DNA of 64,000 bases from Cenarchaeum sp. (GTDB lineage Archaea > Thermoproteota > Nitrososphaeria > Nitrososphaerales > Nitrosopumilaceae), in the NCBI GenBank assembly GCA_963692915.1, contig OY843584.1, positions 1,088,001 through 1,152,000 of the forward strand, written 5' to 3'. Position 1 is the first letter of the stretch, and each line of letters opens with the position of its first letter. The notes under the pieces were generated by a model. That model was not told the origin of the DNA. It was given only the letters and a program-made list of their open reading frames with translations, and searched no databases. The translations under genes and the position numbers were made by a program. Of the stretch, positions 34,821 through 46,050 are shown piece by piece.

Positions 34821-34991
34821 GAAAATAGCGCGATCAGGGCATGATCGCGCCCCCCCCCCCCCCCCCCCAATTTTGGGCGGTGAATGTAGGCGGGCAAGAC
34901 GCCAAACTGTCAAGTCGGCCCAGGGCTGGGCATCGGGCCGGCGCAGGCCGACAGGTCGGCAGGAGTCCCGTGTCGCACTTTTGCGCAGGGC
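34821..34991. repeat. ~165-bp element, copy 1: palindrome plus C19 tract
   Basis: gcgcgatca-gggca-tgatcgcgc perfect inverted repeat (34828-34850), C19 (34850-34868), then aattttggg...aggagtcccgtgtcgcactttt; matches 38628-38790. Confidence 0.92.
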
Positions 34992-35051
34992 GAGTCGGAC
35001 AAGCCAATCATCGATCGCAAAAAAAGCGGCGGCCGTGCCGGCGCAGAAATC

Positions 35052-36077
35052 CTATTTGGCGCGAACCATAAACCCTGGGAGGGAGCTTGCCGAGCCGCTG
35101 TAAGCTGTGGCGCAATAGCGCGCAACAGTCAGCTCGTCATCCCCACAGTGCACTGCAGTGGGGCCACTGATGAACAGTGGCCCGCCGCGCATGGATGTCA
35201 CATAGGCCACGTCATCAGGAATATTGTCACTTTGCAGAACCGTCAGTCCAGGGAAGCAAAAGACATTGCCATACGGCGAGTCTGCGGCATCGTCATGTTC
35301 TACTGTTATGGACCGACCCACAAACATCGTGTCGAGCCGGTATGGCAAGTCACTGCCAAGGCTCTTGACAAGGTCCAGTGCAAGACTTGGGGACATTGGG
35401 CGGTCGATATTTAGGGTCTGCGCGTGCTTGGGGAGCTTGGCAAGCCGTTCCCGGCAAAGTGAGTCCTCAAGGGACCAGATTTTTGGCATGATATCGTTGA
35501 GAAGGCCTGTAGGGTCGGGATTGTCAAGCAGGTGTTTGGCGACGGAGAATGTTCTAGGACGCATGCCAATTAATCTATCATGTAAAGGAAGGTGCATAAC
35601 TTCATGAGGATATGACGACAGTTGGAATGCCATATCGCTAAGAAAACGCATCTCAAAGTGGGTTGTGCGGAACCCATACGGCAGGTGAGCCTGTATCGCA
35701 TGTTCAAAAAAAGAGTCAATTTGTGGCGTGAGATCCTGTGACGGGTATGTGCACAGGCCATAATTATTTAATGAGTATTCTACATGATGATATTTCGGAT
35801 CGCCATAGTCAATATTATCAGAGACGCCAACATGGCATACAGCATCACGGTGATCAAATTCACTGCGCATGACGATAGCAGAGCTGCAAGGAGAAAGAGA
35901 GCAGCGTTGGGCATGGTCGAACACAGTTGAGCTGCTTGTCCCATGATGCAGTCCATGTATATGGGCTAGCGCTAGCGGCAACTCTTCGGGCACATACGCA
36001 TCAAGGCTCACACGCCAGGGCAACAGACGGAAACATATACGTGTTTGAGCAGAAATGGCACAAGTCCTGCAAGTCAT
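35052..36077 (-). CDS. Hypothetical protein, paralogue of 37413-38525; putative divergent HK97-fold (capsid/encapsulin-like)
   Basis: ORF open to 36188, start uncertain. Motifs FSVAKHLLD..IWSLEDSLC, YRLDTMFV and GLTVLQSDNIPDDVAYV. Confidence 0.7.
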   Translation of the reverse strand: MTCRTCAISAQTRICFRLLPWRVSLDAYVPEELPLALAHIHGLHHGTSSSTVFDHAQRCSLSPCSSAIVMRSEFDHRDAVCHVGVSDNIDYGDPKYHHVEYSLNNYGLCTYPSQDLTPQIDSFFEHAIQAHLPYGFRTTHFEMRFLSDMAFQLSSYPHEVMHLPLHDRLIGMRPRTFSVAKHLLDNPDPTGLLNDIMPKIWSLEDSLCRERLAKLPKHAQTLNIDRPMSPSLALDLVKSLGSDLPYRLDTMFVGRSITVEHDDAADSPYGNVFCFPGLTVLQSDNIPDDVAYVTSMRGGPLFISGPTAVHCGDDELTVARYCATAYSGSASSLPGFMVRAK

Positions 36078-36288
36078 GCGGCAAGGATCAGTGCGCGCGC
36101 ATCGCCCTGAGGAGATGGCATGGTGTGGGACTATTGTATAAACGGCCTTGGCCGATACCCGCACTCCTGAACAGTCTCCCCTAGGCACGCTCTTTGACCA
36201 GCATGTGACAAAAGGCTGTCAGTCATTTATGGCCAGGCACGGGATCGCGCACCCAAACCCCCAAATCGCCATCGGATCACATGGCGCA

Positions 36289-37317
36289 CTACCAGTGTCC
36301 AAGCCTATGCCCCTCCCTTAGCATCCAGGCAAGCCGCCCAGAGTTGACGCGCAGCTGGCCCACCCTGTATGGAATGTCAACGAGCACGCAAAACAGCACG
36401 TGGTCAGCATGGGACTCGTACATGTCAACCGTGATGTCGCGGCCGAGCCTGTCAGGATACCGGCCAGTGGAATTGTGCAAGAACAGCGGCATGTAATGTG
36501 GTGCGTGCGAGATCAAGATCTGAAATCCAAACTCCATGACCAGGCGGCGAAGAAACTTGCCATATGGAAAGTCCCCCCCCCCCCCCCCCCCAAGGCGTGA
36601 CCTTGCGCCATCAGAAAGGAATGCCTGACACTCGCGAAAATGGCGCGCAAAGAGGGCACGTTCGGCAAGATTCTCCGCAAGCGCCATATGGCCCGCACGG
36701 CATTTTGAGAGGGCGGCATAGTCCAGGGTTTTGTGGGAGAGCAGCGGGGCATCCAGGGTGCGGTTGGATATTTTAGGCAAGGCCATGCCAGTCCGTCCGG
36801 TGAGGGAGAGGAGTGAGGAGGTGTGCTTTTTTTGCTGCGAGTTGAGAATGGCAATGGCGTTTTCTTTTACCTGAAATCCCATATGGCTCTTCCATGTGCG
36901 AGACTTCCACGACGAGTCACCTAGCCAAACTTTCCAGGCATGGGCCATGAACTGGGCCGCGTTCTCATCACGGGCCGCATCTGGCCCTGGTGCGGCATTG
37001 ATATACGAGGCGAGCAGGTCACCAGACGGCACGGAGGGCAGCCCTATTCCGGCAATGTGGTCGGCATATAGCCGGTATATGTGGGGATAGAACTGGTGTC
37101 CAAGTGAGCCCAGGATGGACGTGCCGATGTCCCGGTCAACCTCCTCGCAAAGCCTGAGAACAACGGCCTTTAGCTGCTTTTCAATGGACTGCTGGCCAAG
37201 ATACATGGCAGACCCCAGGGCGTATCCGGACCGGCAAAACCTTGCGATGAGCTGGGACTGGATCAGCTCAGAGGCGGCCTGCTGCTCAAAATGCCCCGAC
37301 ATTTGGCGCATGGGCAA
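36289..37317 (-). CDS. HEPN-domain protein with a large insertion and an in-frame poly-G tract
   Basis: AMYLGQQSIEKQLKAVV matches the HEPN A.F..QQa.EK.LKA.l signature, followed by LGH and a C-terminal GRYP. G19 encodes Gly6. Confidence 0.75.
   Translation of the reverse strand: MPMRQMSGHFEQQAASELIQSQLIARFCRSGYALGSAMYLGQQSIEKQLKAVVLRLCEEVDRDIGTSILGSLGHQFYPHIYRLYADHIAGIGLPSVPSGDLLASYINAAPGPDAARDENAAQFMAHAWKVWLGDSSWKSRTWKSHMGFQVKENAIAILNSQQKKHTSSLLSLTGRTGMALPKISNRTLDAPLLSHKTLDYAALSKCRAGHMALAENLAERALFARHFRECQAFLSDGARSRLGGGGGGDFPYGKFLRRLVMEFGFQILISHAPHYMPLFLHNSTGRYPDRLGRDITVDMYESHADHVLFCVLVDIPYRVGQLRVNSGRLAWMLREGHRLGHW
36573..36591. repeat. C19 homopolymer (G19 on the coding strand) inside the HEPN gene
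   Basis: Direct count; reads CTT (GGG)6 GAC. Confidence 0.95.
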
Positions 37318-37412
37318 TCACGTGACATGTCCCGTGCCATCCATTGTCAGTAGGGTCATGCGCGCGCACGGGCAGCCGTGCCGCAGGCGAACAGGGACAG
37401 ATCCGTGCGCAG

Positions 37413-38525
37413 TCATCTAGTGCCCCCCTCGGACTGTTTCTTGCTTTTTCTCCACTCCATTGTAGAGTTGAACTTTACTCCCCACGGAACGCCTTGCGCG
37501 CCAGTGGTCGGTGGAAAGGCCAGATCACAATAGCGCTCAACTTTGATCTCAGAGTCCGTGCTGCGCAGTATTGACGGGCCATGGACAAACACCGGACCCT
37601 GCGCAGACGACGTGGCAAACGAAGAGTCAGGGGGCATCGAGGATGAGTGCAGGAACGTAATGCCGTTCAGGCGAACCATGTTTCTATAGTCTGGATATCC
37701 CTCAGACCAGTCAAGTGTTCTCGGATCACGGCCAAAGAGCAAGAGATACAGGCCATAGTCCACAAATACCGTGTCAAGGCGCATGTCGTCCGGACGCGAG
37801 CGGTTTAGCCTGCCGACAAAGTCCTCGAGATCGGCGAGTGTAGAGTCCCAGTGGCACGCAAACGTCTCTTCGCCGTCTAGTGCCATCAGCTGCTCAAGGC
37901 ACATGGCATCCTCACGCCACCATATGCTGTCAGCCATGTTATAGTAAAAGTCATTGGCGCCAGGACGCATAAAGTCAGGCCTCTTGATTTTAAGCGCAAA
38001 GTGCGGCATGTCTGCCATGCCCGTGCGCCCGTGATCGCACACGGCCTTTCCGTTGGCAGGAGACGGAACCTGGGATTCTGCACATTCCTGCCTGGCAAGA
38101 CGTGTCCGTTGCACCCTAAATCCGGCGGCAAGGGGCGCAGACGGCGCATTGCCGTCCGGATCCATAACGCGCGCATCGGAGAGCTGCGGCACGTCGGGGG
38201 ACCCGATGAGGCGCCGGTCAAGCTGGAGCATTGCCTGGCCCCGGGAGCCGGCCTGGCGGACAGACGCTGCCCTAGAGTACGTGATCCTGCCGTGCGCGCT
38301 GACCTCAACTGTAGAGCCGGGCTCAAGCGCGCAGCACGGCACGCTATCGACTAGGAATCTCCCCGAGTTGGGGCCTTGCGGGCATGTTGGGGGGACCGCA
38401 TCGGAGAACTGCGCCTCGCGATGGCAGTCACAGTGCCCAAGGAATAGATCGACTGCCCTGCTCAGCGAGGTCTGATCCGCATAGGAATAGTGGTCTGCAG
38501 GCCCGGCGCGCCCGTCGTTTGTCAT
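37413..38525 (-). CDS. Hypothetical protein, paralogue of 35052-36077; putative divergent HK97-fold
   Basis: 370 aa with TATA (TTATTATAA) about 25 nt upstream. Motifs SIWWREDAMCL, LADLEDFVGRL..RLDTVFVDYGLY and LNGITFLHSSSMPPD. Confidence 0.75.
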   Translation of the reverse strand: MTNDGRAGPADHYSYADQTSLSRAVDLFLGHCDCHREAQFSDAVPPTCPQGPNSGRFLVDSVPCCALEPGSTVEVSAHGRITYSRAASVRQAGSRGQAMLQLDRRLIGSPDVPQLSDARVMDPDGNAPSAPLAAGFRVQRTRLARQECAESQVPSPANGKAVCDHGRTGMADMPHFALKIKRPDFMRPGANDFYYNMADSIWWREDAMCLEQLMALDGEETFACHWDSTLADLEDFVGRLNRSRPDDMRLDTVFVDYGLYLLLFGRDPRTLDWSEGYPDYRNMVRLNGITFLHSSSMPPDSSFATSSAQGPVFVHGPSILRSTDSEIKVERYCDLAFPPTTGAQGVPWGVKFNSTMEWRKSKKQSEGGTR

Positions 38526-38627
38526 GCAGATGATTAATGGGCGGCATTATAATAATGTGATGGTGTGTGCTAGGCATGAGGGCCGCACCCCTGCCCATTT
38601 GGTCAGATAGGCGCGCTGACCTCATAC

Positions 38628-38790
38628 GAAAATGGCGTGATCAGGCCATGATCGCGCCCCCCCCCCCCCCCCAATTTTGGGGGGGTGAATGCAGAGCCGC
38701 AAGACGCCAAACTGCCAAAGTCGGCCCAGGGCTGGGCATCGGGCCGGCGCAGGCCGGCAGAGGAGTCCCGTGTCGCACTTTGCGCAGGGC
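38628..38790. repeat. ~165-bp element, copy 2: palindrome plus C16 tract
   Basis: gcgtgatca-ggcca-tgatcgcgc, C16 (38657-38672), aatttt G7; direct repeat of 34821-34991. Confidence 0.92.
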
Positions 38791-39349: not shown

Positions 39350-39520
39350 ACTATGGCATCGCATACGCGCAGAACAGCGTGCGGTTCATCTTTACGTTGA
39401 CAATGTTTCTGTGCACTATGGGGACGTTGTGGTATGTGGCGGCCTTGCTGCTGCAGATCACCAGTGTGGAGAAATACATGTCTTGCGCATTCTGCCAGGG
39501 ATATCGTGTATGTCACCGGC
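39350..39520 (-). pseudogene. Frameshifted duplicate of the C-terminal part of the adjacent PDT-like gene
   Basis: Translates as FSTLVICSSKAATYHNVPIVHRNIVNVKMNRTLF vs FSAVICNREAAEHYGIPIVRRNIANVKKNQTEF; the upstream AECARH segment lies in a different frame. Confidence 0.75.
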
Positions 39521-39573
39521 CAGTGAACTCAAGCCCGCAAAGGCACACGTCAGTGATATACGAGAAGGAAATT

Positions 39574-40206
39574 CTAGTCTCGGATATATGTGGTAAAGTC
39601 GCGCGTGTCATCACGGCGCTGATAGACGTGGAACTCGGTCTGGTTTTTCTTTACGTTTGCAATGTTGCGGCGCACTATGGGGATGCCATAGTGCTCTGCG
39701 GCCTCCCTGTTGCAGATCACAGCAGAGAAGGGAAGGCGGTGTTTACTCACATATTCCGCAGCAGCCGCCGTGTCTGTTATCTTTATGGATCCTGGAAGTA
39801 ACGGCATTCGGAGCATCTTGTGGCTCTCGAGAAACCTGCTGCACTGGTCGAGTGGCTCAGACTTTGAATAGACTCCGTGAATGTCATCTAGCTTTCCATA
39901 TGAGGCCAGCACGTGAGCCACGGTGAATGCGAGTGTGTGGATGTTTTGTAGGTTCAGCCTCTTTGCTATCTCAATAACAGGTGTGGCCTTGTCGCTCCCA
40001 CAGATCAGCCCGTTCACGGTGTTTCTGACTGGAACCACGGCAACATCAGCCCTTGCGCGATGCACTGTTTGAAGGCATTTGTCAAACGTGGGAAATGTCA
40101 GCACGTGCCCAGAGTCACCAAACATTTTGCGTGTCGCAAGGTCGCTATAGCTCATCTTTTGGCCGATTCGCGCGATCACGATCTGCACAGGCGATCTGTT
40201 TTTCAT
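39574..40206 (-). CDS. Prephenate dehydratase catalytic-domain-like protein, no ACT domain, altered motifs
   Basis: SYSDLA, AVVPVRNTVNG, QCSRFL, TAAAAEYV, AAEHYG and NQTEF follow the PheA/PDT pattern. TATA CTTATAAAG about 22 nt upstream. Confidence 0.8.
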   Translation of the reverse strand: MKNRSPVQIVIARIGQKMSYSDLATRKMFGDSGHVLTFPTFDKCLQTVHRARADVAVVPVRNTVNGLICGSDKATPVIEIAKRLNLQNIHTLAFTVAHVLASYGKLDDIHGVYSKSEPLDQCSRFLESHKMLRMPLLPGSIKITDTAAAAEYVSKHRLPFSAVICNREAAEHYGIPIVRRNIANVKKNQTEFHVYQRRDDTRDFTTYIRD

Positions 40207-40383
40207 CGCATTGGCATAATGCCTGATCTTTATAAGAGCTTAACAGGCCTCGCCAAACCCCCAGAGGCAGCGTCTCGGGCGCATCCCTGCCCTGATCATC
40301 GAGCACAAGTCCTTAGAACGGCCAGTCAGGACGCATGACCCACAATGCGCGCACATGCCACATGCTGCAAGCCTTGTGCACGC

Positions 40384-40731
40384 TCAATAGTCCTGTGGAG
40401 GGTTGATAGTGTCCTTTATGCTCACAAAAGCCTGCATCTTTATTGCCATGTCTCGCACGTTGGGGTCACAGAGCGTCTCATAGACCAGGGCGTCCATTAG
40501 CTCCTTTGATGGCTTTTCACCCATGGAGGAGACGAGGCCGGCGAGGTAGCCCTGCACGTAGCAGAGAGTCTCGGCCAGGCCGTTGCGCTCGTTGATCACC
40601 GGAAACATTGGGCAGGCCTCGGGGTTGGCCAGTATCCTTTTCGCATATTTCTTTGTCTCGACTACGGCGACATCGAGGGAGAGGCCATTGTCTGACTCTT
40701 GCAGATTGCGGGTGGTCGTCCTGCGCTTCAT
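40384..40731 (-). CDS. Orphan family protein B1 (115 aa)
   Basis: MKRRTTTRNLQ...CPMFP...ETLCYVQGYLAG...PPQDY; own TATA (TTAATAA); three paralogues in the window. Confidence 0.85.
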   Translation of the reverse strand: MKRRTTTRNLQESDNGLSLDVAVVETKKYAKRILANPEACPMFPVINERNGLAETLCYVQGYLAGLVSSMGEKPSKELMDALVYETLCDPNVRDMAIKMQAFVSIKDTINPPQDY

Positions 40732-41021
40732 GTGGCGCCCCTCAAAGGGGGGCACATTATTAATCATTCGTGCCATCCACCGCACAGGCGCAGCGCAGCG
40801 CCCGCTAGCCGGCAGTCGCGATCCGGCCGACGGGTCTAGCCACAGCGACGCCACTAGGCAAGAGGCGGGGCACGCTGGAGGCACAAAGTCCGTTGACCCC
40901 ACAGGATCCCGCGTCATGGCAGGACAGAGGGCTCTGGAGCCCAGGCTGCTCAACACGGACATCACGAGAACGGCGTAACCCCCGATCGTGCGCGCAGATG
41001 ATATGGCCACGTGGGGCACGC

Positions 41022-41363
41022 TCAATAGTCCTGAGCGGGATGGATGACGTCTTCCAGGGATGGCGCCATCTTTACGACAATGTCGCGCACGTTGTCATCA
41101 GACAGCGCGTCATGGACCAGGGCATCCATCACTTTCCTTGACGGAATGGCCCCTGTAAAGCCCACGATTCCGGCAAGGTACCCTTGCATATAGCAGAGCG
41201 TCTCTAATGGCCCGTTGTGCTCGGTGACAAGCGGAAACATTGGGCAGGCCTTTGGGTCGTCCACTATGCGCGCCGCGTATCTCTTTGTCGCCTCGACGGC
41301 GACGTCGAGGGCGAGTGGGTTGGGCTTTTCTGCCTTCTCTTTTGTGGCCGACTGCAGGCTCAT
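41022..41363 (-). CDS. Orphan family protein A1 (113 aa)
   Basis: MSLQSATKEK...CPMFP...ETLCYMQGYLAG...PAQDY; TATA TTTAATAT upstream. Confidence 0.85.
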   Translation of the reverse strand: MSLQSATKEKAEKPNPLALDVAVEATKRYAARIVDDPKACPMFPLVTEHNGPLETLCYMQGYLAGIVGFTGAIPSRKVMDALVHDALSDDNVRDIVVKMAPSLEDVIHPAQDY

Positions 41364-41969
41364 GCTGCGTCCGACAGGTGTGCGCCATATTAAATATTCT
41401 AATGATCGTGGATTTTGGGGCTCAAGCACGGGCTAGCTCTGATTCCTGCTAGACTCTACATAGAGCATGCAACGGCGCCCCATGACGCTGGAGCTAGCGC
41501 TGCGGCTCAATCACCACTGCGCCAAAGTTATAGTTCAATTTCGTGCCAGAGCCATCATCTGTTAGTATCTCCACCAGTCTGCCCAAGAATGCCTTGCCCG
41601 TCACGGGGTCTGACATCTCTTCAGCAGACATTGCGCGCACCCGCGCCACGGATTGGCATAGATCTGTGGGGGATCTTGGGGTTCAAGCCAGCAAAGACTT
41701 ATCAAAGCGCATGAGTACGGATCGGGGTGAAAATTCGGATCAAGGGTGCGAGGCAGAGGGTAGATCTCAAGAGTGTCACAGGCCACGAGTCCAGCGCGTA
41801 CAGGCAGGCCAGCGCAGGCATGCACAGATCAATGATTGTGCCGATCCGAAACGAGTGCCTTGTAGGGGGCGGAACGGATGCGCCACATGCGTCAGAACCA
41901 CAATTGGCCGCCACGAGGCAAGAGGGCGCAGGCGCGCACGTGAACCATACGGGCACCGAGATTGAGCGC

Positions 41970-44773: not shown

Positions 44774-45121
44774 CTAGTACTCGCGCGGAGGGTTTACGCA
44801 GTCAGTCGGCAGGGCAGACGTCTGCATGGCTACTGCGATATCGCGCACGTTGTGGTCACAGAGCGTCTCGTAGACTAGGGCGTCCATCTTTTCCTTTGTC
44901 GGCTTTTCTCCCATTGACGAGACAAAGCCGGCGAGGTAGCCCTGCATGTAGCTGAGCGACTGGAGAATGCCGTGGTACTCATTGATGACCGGAAACATCG
45001 GGCACGCCTGTGGGTCGTTGCGTATGCTCGCCGCATACCTCTTTGTCGCGTCCACTGCGATTTTAAGGGACAGATCGTTGTCTGGCTCTTGCACATTGCG
45101 CAAACTCGTCTTGCGTTTCAT
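44774..45121 (-). CDS. Orphan family protein B2 (115 aa)
   Basis: Close paralogue of B1; TATA TTTAATAA upstream. Confidence 0.85.
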   Translation of the reverse strand: MKRKTSLRNVQEPDNDLSLKIAVDATKRYAASIRNDPQACPMFPVINEYHGILQSLSYMQGYLAGFVSSMGEKPTKEKMDALVYETLCDHNVRDIAVAMQTSALPTDCVNPPREY

Positions 45122-45405
45122 GTGACGCGCTCTAAAGTGAGCGCATTATTAAACACTCGCACCATCTGACCGCACGAGGGCAGCGCAGCGTTGGCCAGGC
45201 AGGCGCGAACAGGCCGACGTGTCTGGCCACAGCGACGTCACTAGGCAAGAGGCGAGGTATGGCGATGAGCGCATAGTCGACTCTGCAGGAACCCGCGCCA
45301 TGGCAAGACAGAAGGCTCGAGGGCAGGGGCTGCTCAACATGTACATCACGAGAACGGCGTAACCCCCGATCGTGCGCGCAGACGATATGGCCACATGGGG
45401 CGCGC

Positions 45406-45747
45406 TCAATAGTCCTGCGGGGGGTTTATGCACTCGTCCAGGGACAGCGTCATCTTTAAGACAATGTCGCGCACATTGTCATCAGAGAGCGCATCACGAA
45501 CCATCGAGTTCATCACATCCCTAGTTGGGGTAGCCCCGGCAAAGTCCGCGATTCCGGCGAGGTAGCCGTGCATGTAGCAGAGCGTCTCGAGTGCCCCGCC
45601 GTGACTGGTGAGCACAGGAAGCATTGGACAGGCCTTTGGGTTGTCCACTATGCTCGCCGCGTATCTCTTTGTCTCGCTCACGGCGACGTCTAGCACGAGT
45701 GGGTTGGGCTTTTCTGCCCTCTCCTTTGTGGCCGTCTGCAGGCTCAT
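45406..45747 (-). CDS. Orphan family protein A2 (113 aa)
   Basis: Close paralogue of A1 (MSLQTATKER); TATA TTTAATAT upstream. Confidence 0.85.
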   Translation of the reverse strand: MSLQTATKERAEKPNPLVLDVAVSETKRYAASIVDNPKACPMLPVLTSHGGALETLCYMHGYLAGIADFAGATPTRDVMNSMVRDALSDDNVRDIVLKMTLSLDECINPPQDY

Positions 45748-46050
45748 GCCTCTCGCAGCATATACACACCATATTAAACATTCCAATGACTGTGGCTTTT
45801 GTGGGCTCAAGCGCGAGCCACCGTCGATTCTGGTCACGAACTTTGCACAGGGCAAAAAGCAGGGCATGACACGGCGCGCGTCTTCCTCACTCAGGGCGCA
45901 CAGTGTGGCAGTGCCATGTAGCCTGCGATCAACAGGGCGCACACTATCCGATCAAAGTGAGGCGCTGTAGTTTGGGAAGAGCTCGCGAGGCACACCAATG
46001 GCGGCAGGCAGGGCCAACACGCTTAAAAATCGCCATCGTGTGAGCGGGAC

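Follow-up and report, generated by a model that had tools for sequence, protein, structure and literature searches.

Within a 64,000-nt stretch of a Cenarchaeum sp. genome (contig OY843584.1, positions 1,088,001 to 1,152,000; in the following the window), which derives from a complete genome of 1.64 Mb with 59% G+C, we analysed a compact cassette of three open reading frames (ORFs), C, B and A, in which two genes for capsid-like proteins enclose a gene for a HEPN-like protein. The cassette is specific for Cenarchaeum, and its C-type gene is repeatedly followed by a gene of the HEPN superfamily. Structure prediction assigns the HK97 capsid fold to the product of ORF C, and these capsid-fold proteins stand alone in the host chromosome, outside any recognisable virus. 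We tentatively favour the view that the cassette is a domesticated capsid-fold and HEPN conflict module of the abortive-infection or toxin-antitoxin kind, a reading that we regard as quite possible, if somewhat short of probable.

The three ORFs share one orientation; read along the minus strand they follow each other as C, B and A, with a copy of a direct repeat on either side, and they are the only ORFs of at least 150 aa in this unit. ORF C (37413-38525, minus strand) encodes the C-type capsid-like protein of 370 aa, begins with ATG and is preceded by a TTATAA element about 21 nt upstream of the start (~38547-38552). ORF B (36289-37317, minus strand) encodes a HEPN-like protein of 342 aa which is predicted to be all-helical. 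ORF A (35052-35993, minus strand) encodes the A-type paralogue of 313 aa, to which the HK97 fold is assigned by homology, with a probable GTG start at 35993. Copy 1 of the repeat (34821-34985) lies upstream of a giant gene, and copy 2 (38628-38790), on the upstream side of ORF C, stops about 100 nt short of its ATG. An earlier note on this DNA had described a co-oriented three-gene unit with paralogous outer genes and a direct repeat of about 165 bp around it, and all of this was borne out. Some of its details need correction. ORF A is present with a maximal frame of 35052-36188 (378 aa), but the family consensus start most likely makes it shorter, as the related genome G001 has an ATG at this position and the window genome a GCG, followed two codons later by the GTG at 35993. 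On the left flank the repeat is real, but the giant minus-strand gene right beside it (ATG 34787) had gone unmentioned.

Products of ORFs A and C are clear paralogues (BLASTP E 3e-14, 29% identity over 151 residues), and the shared motifs quoted for them in the earlier note are present. Two further paralogues are encoded in the genome, C2 at 616,571-617,680 (61% identical to C) and A2 at 1,624,550-1,625,503. The family is rare: an exhaustive phmmer search with C against 1.84 billion cluster representatives (E<=1e-3) found 38 proteins. The family alignment likewise comprises 38 rows, namely 35 of these proteins together with C, A and A2. The short fragments P0035 and P0039 were left out, as was P0008, a repeat protein of 3,325 aa whose 25 matched stretches against residues 59-83 of C were repeat-driven and which was therefore dropped from the family. 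The alignment separates two subfamilies: proteins of the C type measure about 370 aa and have an N-terminal insert rich in Cys, and those of the A type measure about 313 aa. The motifs ED..C, LDTVF, GP.F..GP, RYC and PWG are common to both. The family profile matches A with E 6.9e-78 over profile positions 11-324 of 336. None of the three proteins A, B and C has a match in Pfam (E<=0.1), NCBIfam (E<=1), PADLOC or PHROGs (E<=0.01), nor does any model of these libraries match C2 or A2. Searched with the profile of the capsid-like family, the PDB sequences gave nothing at E<=10, and a word-index search with A retrieved A alone.

The structural assignment was made with an AlphaFold2 model of C, built on the family alignment, which reached a predicted local distance difference test (pLDDT) value of 82.5 and a predicted template modelling score of 0.84 and covers an N-arm helix, an E-loop hairpin, a spine helix and an A-domain. 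Foldseek returned 228 matches at E<=1e-3 from the PDB, and among the matches listed all were capsids, encapsulins or engineered capsid or encapsulin nanocages. From BFVD 193 matches at E<=1e-3 were obtained, with major capsid proteins at the head. In VIA alignments, the model was most similar to T4 gp23 (Z 12.7, root-mean-square deviation 4.0, 219 residues aligned) and T4 gp24 (Z 12.4), followed by HK97 gp5 (Z 11.4) and EncA (Z 11.3), with 219-240 residues aligned across these matches. An exhaustive alignment to 48,161 chains placed HK97-fold proteins at all of the best 50 positions (Z 12.4-7.8). Since the model is confident and its structural matches are exclusively of this fold, the predicted HK97 fold of C is confirmed at the level of the model, and A is assigned the same fold by homology to C; the HK97-type architecture proposed in the earlier note is upheld in this way for both proteins. 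The ratio of nonsynonymous to synonymous substitutions (dN/dS) of C, 0.23 against the G001 orthologue and 0.30 against the paralogue C2, shows purifying selection on both C and C2. For B the ratio against G001 is 0.59.

Pfam scans round both cassettes of the window genome (29 ORFs at window 38.6-63.5 kb and 11 at the second cassette, locus L022) detected no terminase, portal or protease/scaffold, nor did PHROGs applied to 22 proteins, in agreement with the earlier observation that such genes are missing nearby. Terminase and portal models run genome-wide yielded a single sub-threshold match of 18.5 bits for PF03237 and none for PF03354 and PF04860. The neighbours of both cassettes are housekeeping genes, and the second cassette lies among genes of the TatC, MoxR, VWA and PurP types. 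A second orphan family (339-389 aa) was noticed beside A2, at L021:13496-14665 (plus strand), with further members at L020:11832-12851 and L038:2024-3043. Its nearest ESM Atlas clusters are phage capsid families (PF25209, PF19821) at a score of 0.94 with only 142 shared features, which is a lead only; the family has no match in Pfam (PF25209 included), PHROGs or the PDB sequences, and its profile is not similar to that of A and C.

Among 41 related genomes the capsid-like family profile was found in four of the five Cenarchaeum genomes and in none of the other 36, and 400 further genomes of the phylum gave no match. A pattern search with eight closer sequences located five loci in genome contigs, all of them Cenarchaeum or thaumarchaeal metagenome-assembled genome records. 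With the same eight sequences no relative was found in the viral contigs of IMG/VR (14 pattern matches, none confirmed) or in JGI metagenome contigs (134 pattern matches, none confirmed).

For the analysis of gene neighbourhoods, 12 capsid-like loci from four genomes were compared by clustering their ORFs and scanning the neighbour families. A HEPN-family gene is the immediate same-strand neighbour in eight of these 12 loci. Four loci show a C-type gene followed directly by a B-type gene on the same strand, and at one further locus the B-type gene is found about 900 nt downstream of the C-type gene. The A-type genes of the C-B-A cassettes directly follow the B-type gene (two loci). Finally, two C-type genes are followed directly by a gene for a Ymh protein (PF09509, cut-off 25 bits), located at L039:6637-7500 (E 7.1e-32) and L044:3483-4835 (E 6.3e-22); these partners carry the sequences RNSVGH and RNPASH, which both agree with RNxxxH. 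As Ymh is a HEPN family with a conserved motif (Anantharaman et al., 2013, PMC3710099), the HEPN proteins encoded next to the capsid-fold gene come from two different families. The remaining loci comprise one gene in front of an IS630-type transposase gene, one in front of TPR genes, and A2. An AbiJ_NTD4 protein is encoded two genes away from A2, and their island also contains an OLD-type nuclease, GmrSD and DUF3800. The gene following one capsid-like copy (cluster F6) codes for an IS630-type transposase, and a relationship to B was rejected (hhalign probability 0.3). Homologues confined to proviruses and never accompanied by HEPN, which the earlier note had named as one outcome that would contradict its proposal, were not what we found, as none was detected in the IMG/VR viral contigs and the genes recur beside HEPN-family genes.

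We accept B as HEPN-like on the combination of sub-threshold Pfam matches, weak fold matches, language-model neighbours and conserved motifs. PF05168 (HEPN) is the commonest Pfam match in the B family, occurring in nine of 13 members in a scan at E<=10, with a best E of 0.0022 and always below threshold. The window's own B has no whole-protein match to PF05168, and its N-terminal 100 residues reach 12.7 bits against a cut-off of 22. The ESM Atlas clusters nearest to B are archaeal, with proteins of 318-344 aa; PF05168 is present in 11%, 25% and 92% of their members, at scores of 0.94, 0.91 and 0.89 with 206, 187 and 189 shared features, respectively. The model of B is all-helical with a middling pLDDT of 67.5. 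Foldseek found nothing at E<=1e-3, and the B profile matched 1wol alone among the PDB sequence profiles (E 0.57). In a wide VIA search nine of the best 50 chains were annotated as HEPN or belonged to known HEPN families, including LsoA, the sacsin HEPN domain, AF0298, ST0689, TT1696, two HEPN toxins and RnlA, at Z values of 5.0-6.2, a range which is unspecific for helical bundles. Motifs of B are QQSIEKQLKA (residues 42-51), H74, GRYP (285-288) and T296/D298/Y300, and the conserved polar residues among the 13 sequences are E46, K47, K50, H74, R286, Y287, D298 and Y300. These invariants (QQSxEKxLK, H74, GRYP...T.D.Y) fit two halves of a HEPN bundle which would be split by an insert of about 190 residues. 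The family members also share a conserved C-terminal tail, G-x-x-L-G-x-W. Close relatives of B were found in the same genus only, and the B profile gave one marginal match in the 400 other genomes of the phylum. For the HEPN call of the earlier note the evidence is thus weaker; no library places B above threshold, and the Rx4-6H motif is not conserved.

In the conflict module that we favour, the capsid-derived protein would be the constant part, a sensor, decoy or scaffold that binds its HEPN partner in uninfected cells and that would be drawn off, or co-assembled, by the proteins with which an infecting tailed virus assembles its capsid. The effector would be the exchangeable HEPN protein, presumably an RNase in the case of the Ymh-type partners, the activity of the B-type proteins being uncertain. 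The repeats would be copies of a promoter-upstream element which also serves the neighbouring gene of a surface protein of 25,609 aa. A more specific version, which we hold to be doubtful, is an immune module built on a capsid decoy: the capsid protein would restrain HEPN, and its co-assembly with capsid proteins of infecting thaumarchaeal tailed viruses, or its titration by their assembly factors, would poison virus assembly and free HEPN, which would then shut the cell down. In this lineage such a module would be under hypermutable poly-G control shared with giant surface-protein genes.

Several observations weigh against a conflict module. No R-x4-6-H is invariant across the 13 B-family sequences, and the R82-x4-H87 of the window's B is not conserved in the family, so that B may lack nuclease activity. 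It should be added that PF05168 members are often without the motif histidine and have another histidine conserved elsewhere (PMC3710099, Table 1). At three of the 12 loci, those with the insertion sequence (IS) element, the TPR genes and A2, a HEPN gene is missing from the surrounding 1 kb or so. Nor are the loci independent: two of the 12 are orthologous to two others and all belong to one genus, and therefore few events lie behind the pairing. ORF A has a dN/dS of 0.69 and is without the ATG of its orthologue, one capsid-like copy is split by an IS630-type transposase gene and two contain an in-frame TAG, so that some copies have a decayed look. PADLOC contains nothing resembling the module, and encapsulin operons, too, have the appearance of a stand-alone HK97-fold gene with a partner gene beside it. 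A multimer model of the capsid-like and the HEPN protein, as suggested in the earlier note, speaks for contact at first sight, with a score of 0.54 for C with B against 0.00 for the best control, at least 62% of contacts agreeing between runs and a partner pLDDT of at least 83, but by the tool's own calibration this score is weak. The mark it passed was reached by 58 of 80 solved complexes and by 2 of 110 mismatched pairs, and at values of <=0.60 there are 7 of the 80 solved complexes and both of the passing mismatches.

The split copy just mentioned lies in G001 (L039, 4473-6521) with the IS630-type (DDE_3) transposase gene inside, and at least five copies of this transposase family occur in the G001 loci examined. 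The central part of ORF A (35600-35999) is AT-richer (43-46% G+C) and 76-77% identical to G001. Window patches 35600-35999 and 39400-41400 are 52-79% identical to G001; elsewhere identity amounts to 96-99% in B, 91-98% in C and 95% in the housekeeping genes at 50.7-64 kb. This mosaic divergence suggests recombination or diversifying change. At window positions 35137-35471 and 37581-38547, contigs of the sequencing runs X1 and X2 contain a second letter set at about one quarter to four tenths of the depth, which points to a co-resident close strain.

The main rival to the conflict module, which we consider unlikely, is an encapsulin-like nanocompartment, in which C, perhaps together with A, would form a closed HK97-fold shell and the HEPN-like protein would be cargo or a shell-bound partner. 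The stand-alone position of an HK97-fold gene outside any virus is in line with this, as are the N-arm helix, E-loop hairpin, spine helix and A-domain of the model, and encapsulins are indeed among the best structural matches (EncA with Z 11.3, the D. quercicolus encapsulin with Z 10.2 and the P. furiosus particle with Z 9.7-10.0). The contact score of C and B, weak as it is by calibration, counts in its favour, and we infer that the G-x-x-L-G-x-W tail of B could act as a docking peptide. Virus capsids, however, match C as high or higher, and a match is lacking in Pfam at E<=0.1, encapsulin families included, and in NCBIfam at E<=1. The partner, moreover, is swapped between two HEPN families with unlike C-termini, which fits exchangeable effectors better than a dedicated cargo; copies lie in islands with nucleases, Abi-like genes and IS elements, and the literature searched contained no link of encapsulins with HEPN. 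Decay is the other explanation to be weighed: the capsid-like genes would be relics of decayed proviruses or other mobile elements stranded in variable islands, next to HEPN genes which served the same elements in defence or addiction and have no relation to them. Window positions ~38-50 kb and the island at 1.59-1.63 Mb are variable and IS-bearing, and the fast evolution of ORF A with its lost ATG, the IS-split copy and the two copies with TAG would be expected of such remains; the protein beside A2 with phage-capsid clusters as its nearest ESM Atlas neighbours (0.94, only 142 shared features) may be named here as a lead only. We nevertheless judge this origin of the whole pattern to be quite unlikely. 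Four intact paralogues are maintained in a genome of 1.64 Mb, with C and C2 under purifying selection, the second cassette has nothing viral near it among the TatC, MoxR, VWA and PurP-type genes, three Pfam families for terminase and portal gave no match above cut-off genome-wide, and the order of a capsid-like gene followed by a HEPN gene recurs with two HEPN families.

Very improbable, in our view, is a third account put forward in the earlier note, that of an excisable element. Here the 3.6-kb C-B-A unit would have entered by a single crossover at the repeat and could leave again by recombination between the repeat copies. Direct repeats round an insert are what Campbell-type integration leaves, and in the genome those of the window are confined to the flanks of this unit. 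Next to the unit there is a duplicated fragment of the pheA 3' end, and contigs of two sequencing runs show a joint leading from 38792 back to 34996. The unit contains no integrase or recombinase, however, and G001, which is colinear over 33.0-40.7 kb at 87.7% identity, has the unit and both repeat copies at the same place. With copies that are only 87% alike, the repeat event must be old. The short side of the joint measures 43 letters, all inside the repeat, and its depth is that of a co-resident minor strain; in this strain, as in G001, copy 1 is similar to copy 2 at this place. We therefore did not accept the joint as a circle junction. No empty site was seen, the repeat with its flank being detected in one of the four other genomes of the genus, where the site is occupied. 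This ambiguous joint is the only back-joint in the contigs of other runs. Joints linking two of the poly-C tracts (36592 to 38657-38659) were discarded as well, since they have sides of 18-21 letters and represent assembly joins through a homopolymer.

What the repeats are instead may be seen from their structure. The copies align with 87% identity over query positions 7-176 (E 2.9e-51) and are the only two in the 1.64-Mb genome; the DNA between them measures 3,642 bp, with a start-to-start spacing of 3,805-3,807 bp. Each holds a palindrome and a long poly-G tract. On the minus strand copy 1 consists of conserved blocks, the poly-G tract (34868-34850), the palindrome GCGCGATCA-N5-TGATCGCGC (34849-34827) and a T-run; from its end to the TATA element of the giant gene (34809-34804) the distance is about 12 nt. 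As the likely start of this gene is at 34787, copy 1 is directly upstream of its promoter. We interpret the repeat as an element upstream of the giant gene's promoter that was copied in front of C, possibly as a remnant of an old recombination event. The repeats are not att sites of the tRNA type, since the window has no tRNA gene and 33.5-41.5 kb contain no Rfam family at E<=0.5. The palindrome was not called an RNA hairpin, because the four copies compared show no consistent compensatory change, and small ORFs within the repeat were not read as coding, because their frame is not conserved between the copies.

The giant gene itself lies outside the capsid-like module. Its 5' part occupies window positions 3-34787 on the minus strand, the frame being open from 34913 past the window start, and the ORF comprises 25,609 codons from the ATG at 34787 down to genome position 1,045,958. 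No other ORF of the genome comes near it in length, and it is among the largest known from prokaryotes. Its product starts with the signal-peptide-like sequence MAQLSHSRLSSTGIAMLAAITLLAGLGG, and a TTATAA lies 16 nt upstream of the ATG. The residues T, A, V, S and D are abundant in the protein, which has Ig-like (Big_5), CopC-like and SWM_repeat matches. The TAG stop of ORF A (35052-35054) is in the frame of the giant ORF, so that read-through would give a frame of 26,086 aa, and likewise one of 25,021 aa in G001. This shared frame is probably due to chance, as the giant gene has a TATA element, ATG and signal peptide of its own.

Long homopolymers are a further feature of the region. Runs of at least 12 C account for 21 overlapping matches in three tracts, against none expected from 100 shuffles. 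The tracts are located in repeat copy 1 (34850-34868, 19 nt), in repeat copy 2 (38657-38672, 16 nt, poly-G on the minus strand) and within ORF B (36573-36591, 19 nt), where the poly-G of the coding strand encodes an in-frame GGGGGG. Genome-wide, 15 G/C runs of 10-26 nt were counted, with few intermediate lengths; for C runs no length between 8 and 11 nt occurs, and for G runs none between 7 and 10 nt. On the sense strand, poly-G runs of 16-19 nt lie at genome positions 419733, 647452, 656965, 1122850 (window 34850) and 1126657 (window 38657), those at 647452 and 656965 being situated in another duplicated upstream segment. In four of the five largest ORFs a sense-strand run of 17-19 G lies 59-81 nt upstream of the start, a distance of about 62 nt to the ATG at 34787 for the giant (25.6k aa) and measured to the first start codon for the ORFs of 5,223, 3,057 and 2,957 aa; a further poly-G run lies 131 nt upstream of C. 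The lengths of the tracts vary between populations, as G001 and contigs of other runs differ from the window genome. In the repeats of G001 the tracts measure 18 and 13 nt, compared with 19 and 16 nt here. In B the tract exceeds that of the relatives, which have GG at this place, by 12 nt. G001 is without a tract in B, and runs X5 and X6 yielded contigs that span the site with a gap of 12 letters, corresponding to a short form of 7 G. Among the genomes and contigs compared no out-of-frame form of the B tract occurs, 19 and 7 nt both being in frame. The description of B as switchable in the earlier note is plausible, and its tract would represent a potential on/off switch that arose in this lineage only. 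The tracts would be hypermutable regulators of expression, and those upstream of giant surface-protein genes may provide phase-variable control in an archaeal symbiont.

Beyond repeat copy 2 the window enters a variable region. A 99-nt stretch just outside the copy (39363-39461) shares 71% identity with 39622-39720, a segment from the 3' end of the gene for prephenate dehydratase (pheA), and is the trace of an old duplication. A small multi-copy orphan protein family (cluster F4) is encoded at 40384-41025, 41022-41429 and 44774-45942; it has copies in G001 as well and no Pfam or PHROG match. At window ~50.6-50.7 kb, G001 contains about 62 kb of extra DNA, its matches ending at G001 position 1,336,430 and resuming at 1,398,744.

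In cellular roles the HK97 capsid fold is known from encapsulins, gene transfer agents and satellite capsids. Encapsulins are named as the stand-alone case (PMC8987985). The cassette described here adds a sequence-orphan HK97-fold family which is confined to one genus of sponge-symbiotic ammonia oxidisers and recurrently wired to two HEPN families. In the literature searched, no description of a capsid-fold and HEPN pair was found, and parts of PMC6563490 and of other literature on Cenarchaeum and HK97 hold nothing on the capsid-like family. If the cassette is a defence module, capsid-derived immunity, known from animals, would be extended to archaea and a new type of sensor would be added; if the capsid protein acts as a decoy, it would be the first prokaryotic immune sensor built from a capsid protein, with exchangeable HEPN effectors. 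A shell, on the other hand, would amount to a new encapsulin family with RNA-directed cargo. Either way, a compact system of two or three genes is at hand which can be expressed outside its uncultivated host. The poly-G tracts before the largest surface-protein genes, in turn, suggest phase-variable surface display in an archaeal symbiont.

Among characterized systems, encapsulins (families 1-4) resemble the cassette in being stand-alone cellular HK97-fold proteins beside a partner gene, with structural matches of Z 9-11.3. In contrast to them, C and A show no encapsulin-family sequence match, occur as several paralogues per genome and are found in variable or defence islands; the partner is a HEPN-superfamily protein of exchangeable type. 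The capsids of tailed viruses (T4 gp23 and gp24, HK97 gp5, HFTV1) share the predicted fold of C and provide its best structural matches, whereas C and A are without a terminase, portal, protease or tail gene nearby or, for the families tried, genome-wide, have no PHROG or Pfam capsid match, and no relative of them was found in IMG/VR. HEPN toxin modules such as HEPN-MNT, AbiJ, Ymh and others of Abi type likewise combine a HEPN protein with a constant partner in two-gene cassettes within defence-type islands (PMC3710099). Their partner is a nucleotidyltransferase or an AbiJ-type N-terminal domain and not a capsid-fold protein as here, and the B-type HEPN proteins differ by the insert of about 190 residues and the lack of a conserved Rx4-6H. 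In animals, capsid-derived restriction factors of the Fv1 type are domesticated capsid proteins acting on another virus. Together with the capsid-redirecting phage satellites, of which the cf-PICI capsid (PDB 9gyi) matches C at Z 9.7, they act on the assembly of another virus and may serve as an analogy, functional only, for a decoy role. Homopolymer-tract contingency loci of bacteria, finally, control phase-variable surface genes. The tracts described here differ from them in belonging to an archaeon and in lying 59-131 nt upstream of start codons, outside the TATA-to-start interval, but they have in common with them the long G/C runs upstream of or inside genes and the differing lengths, of 19 versus 18, 16 versus 13 and 19 versus 7 nt.

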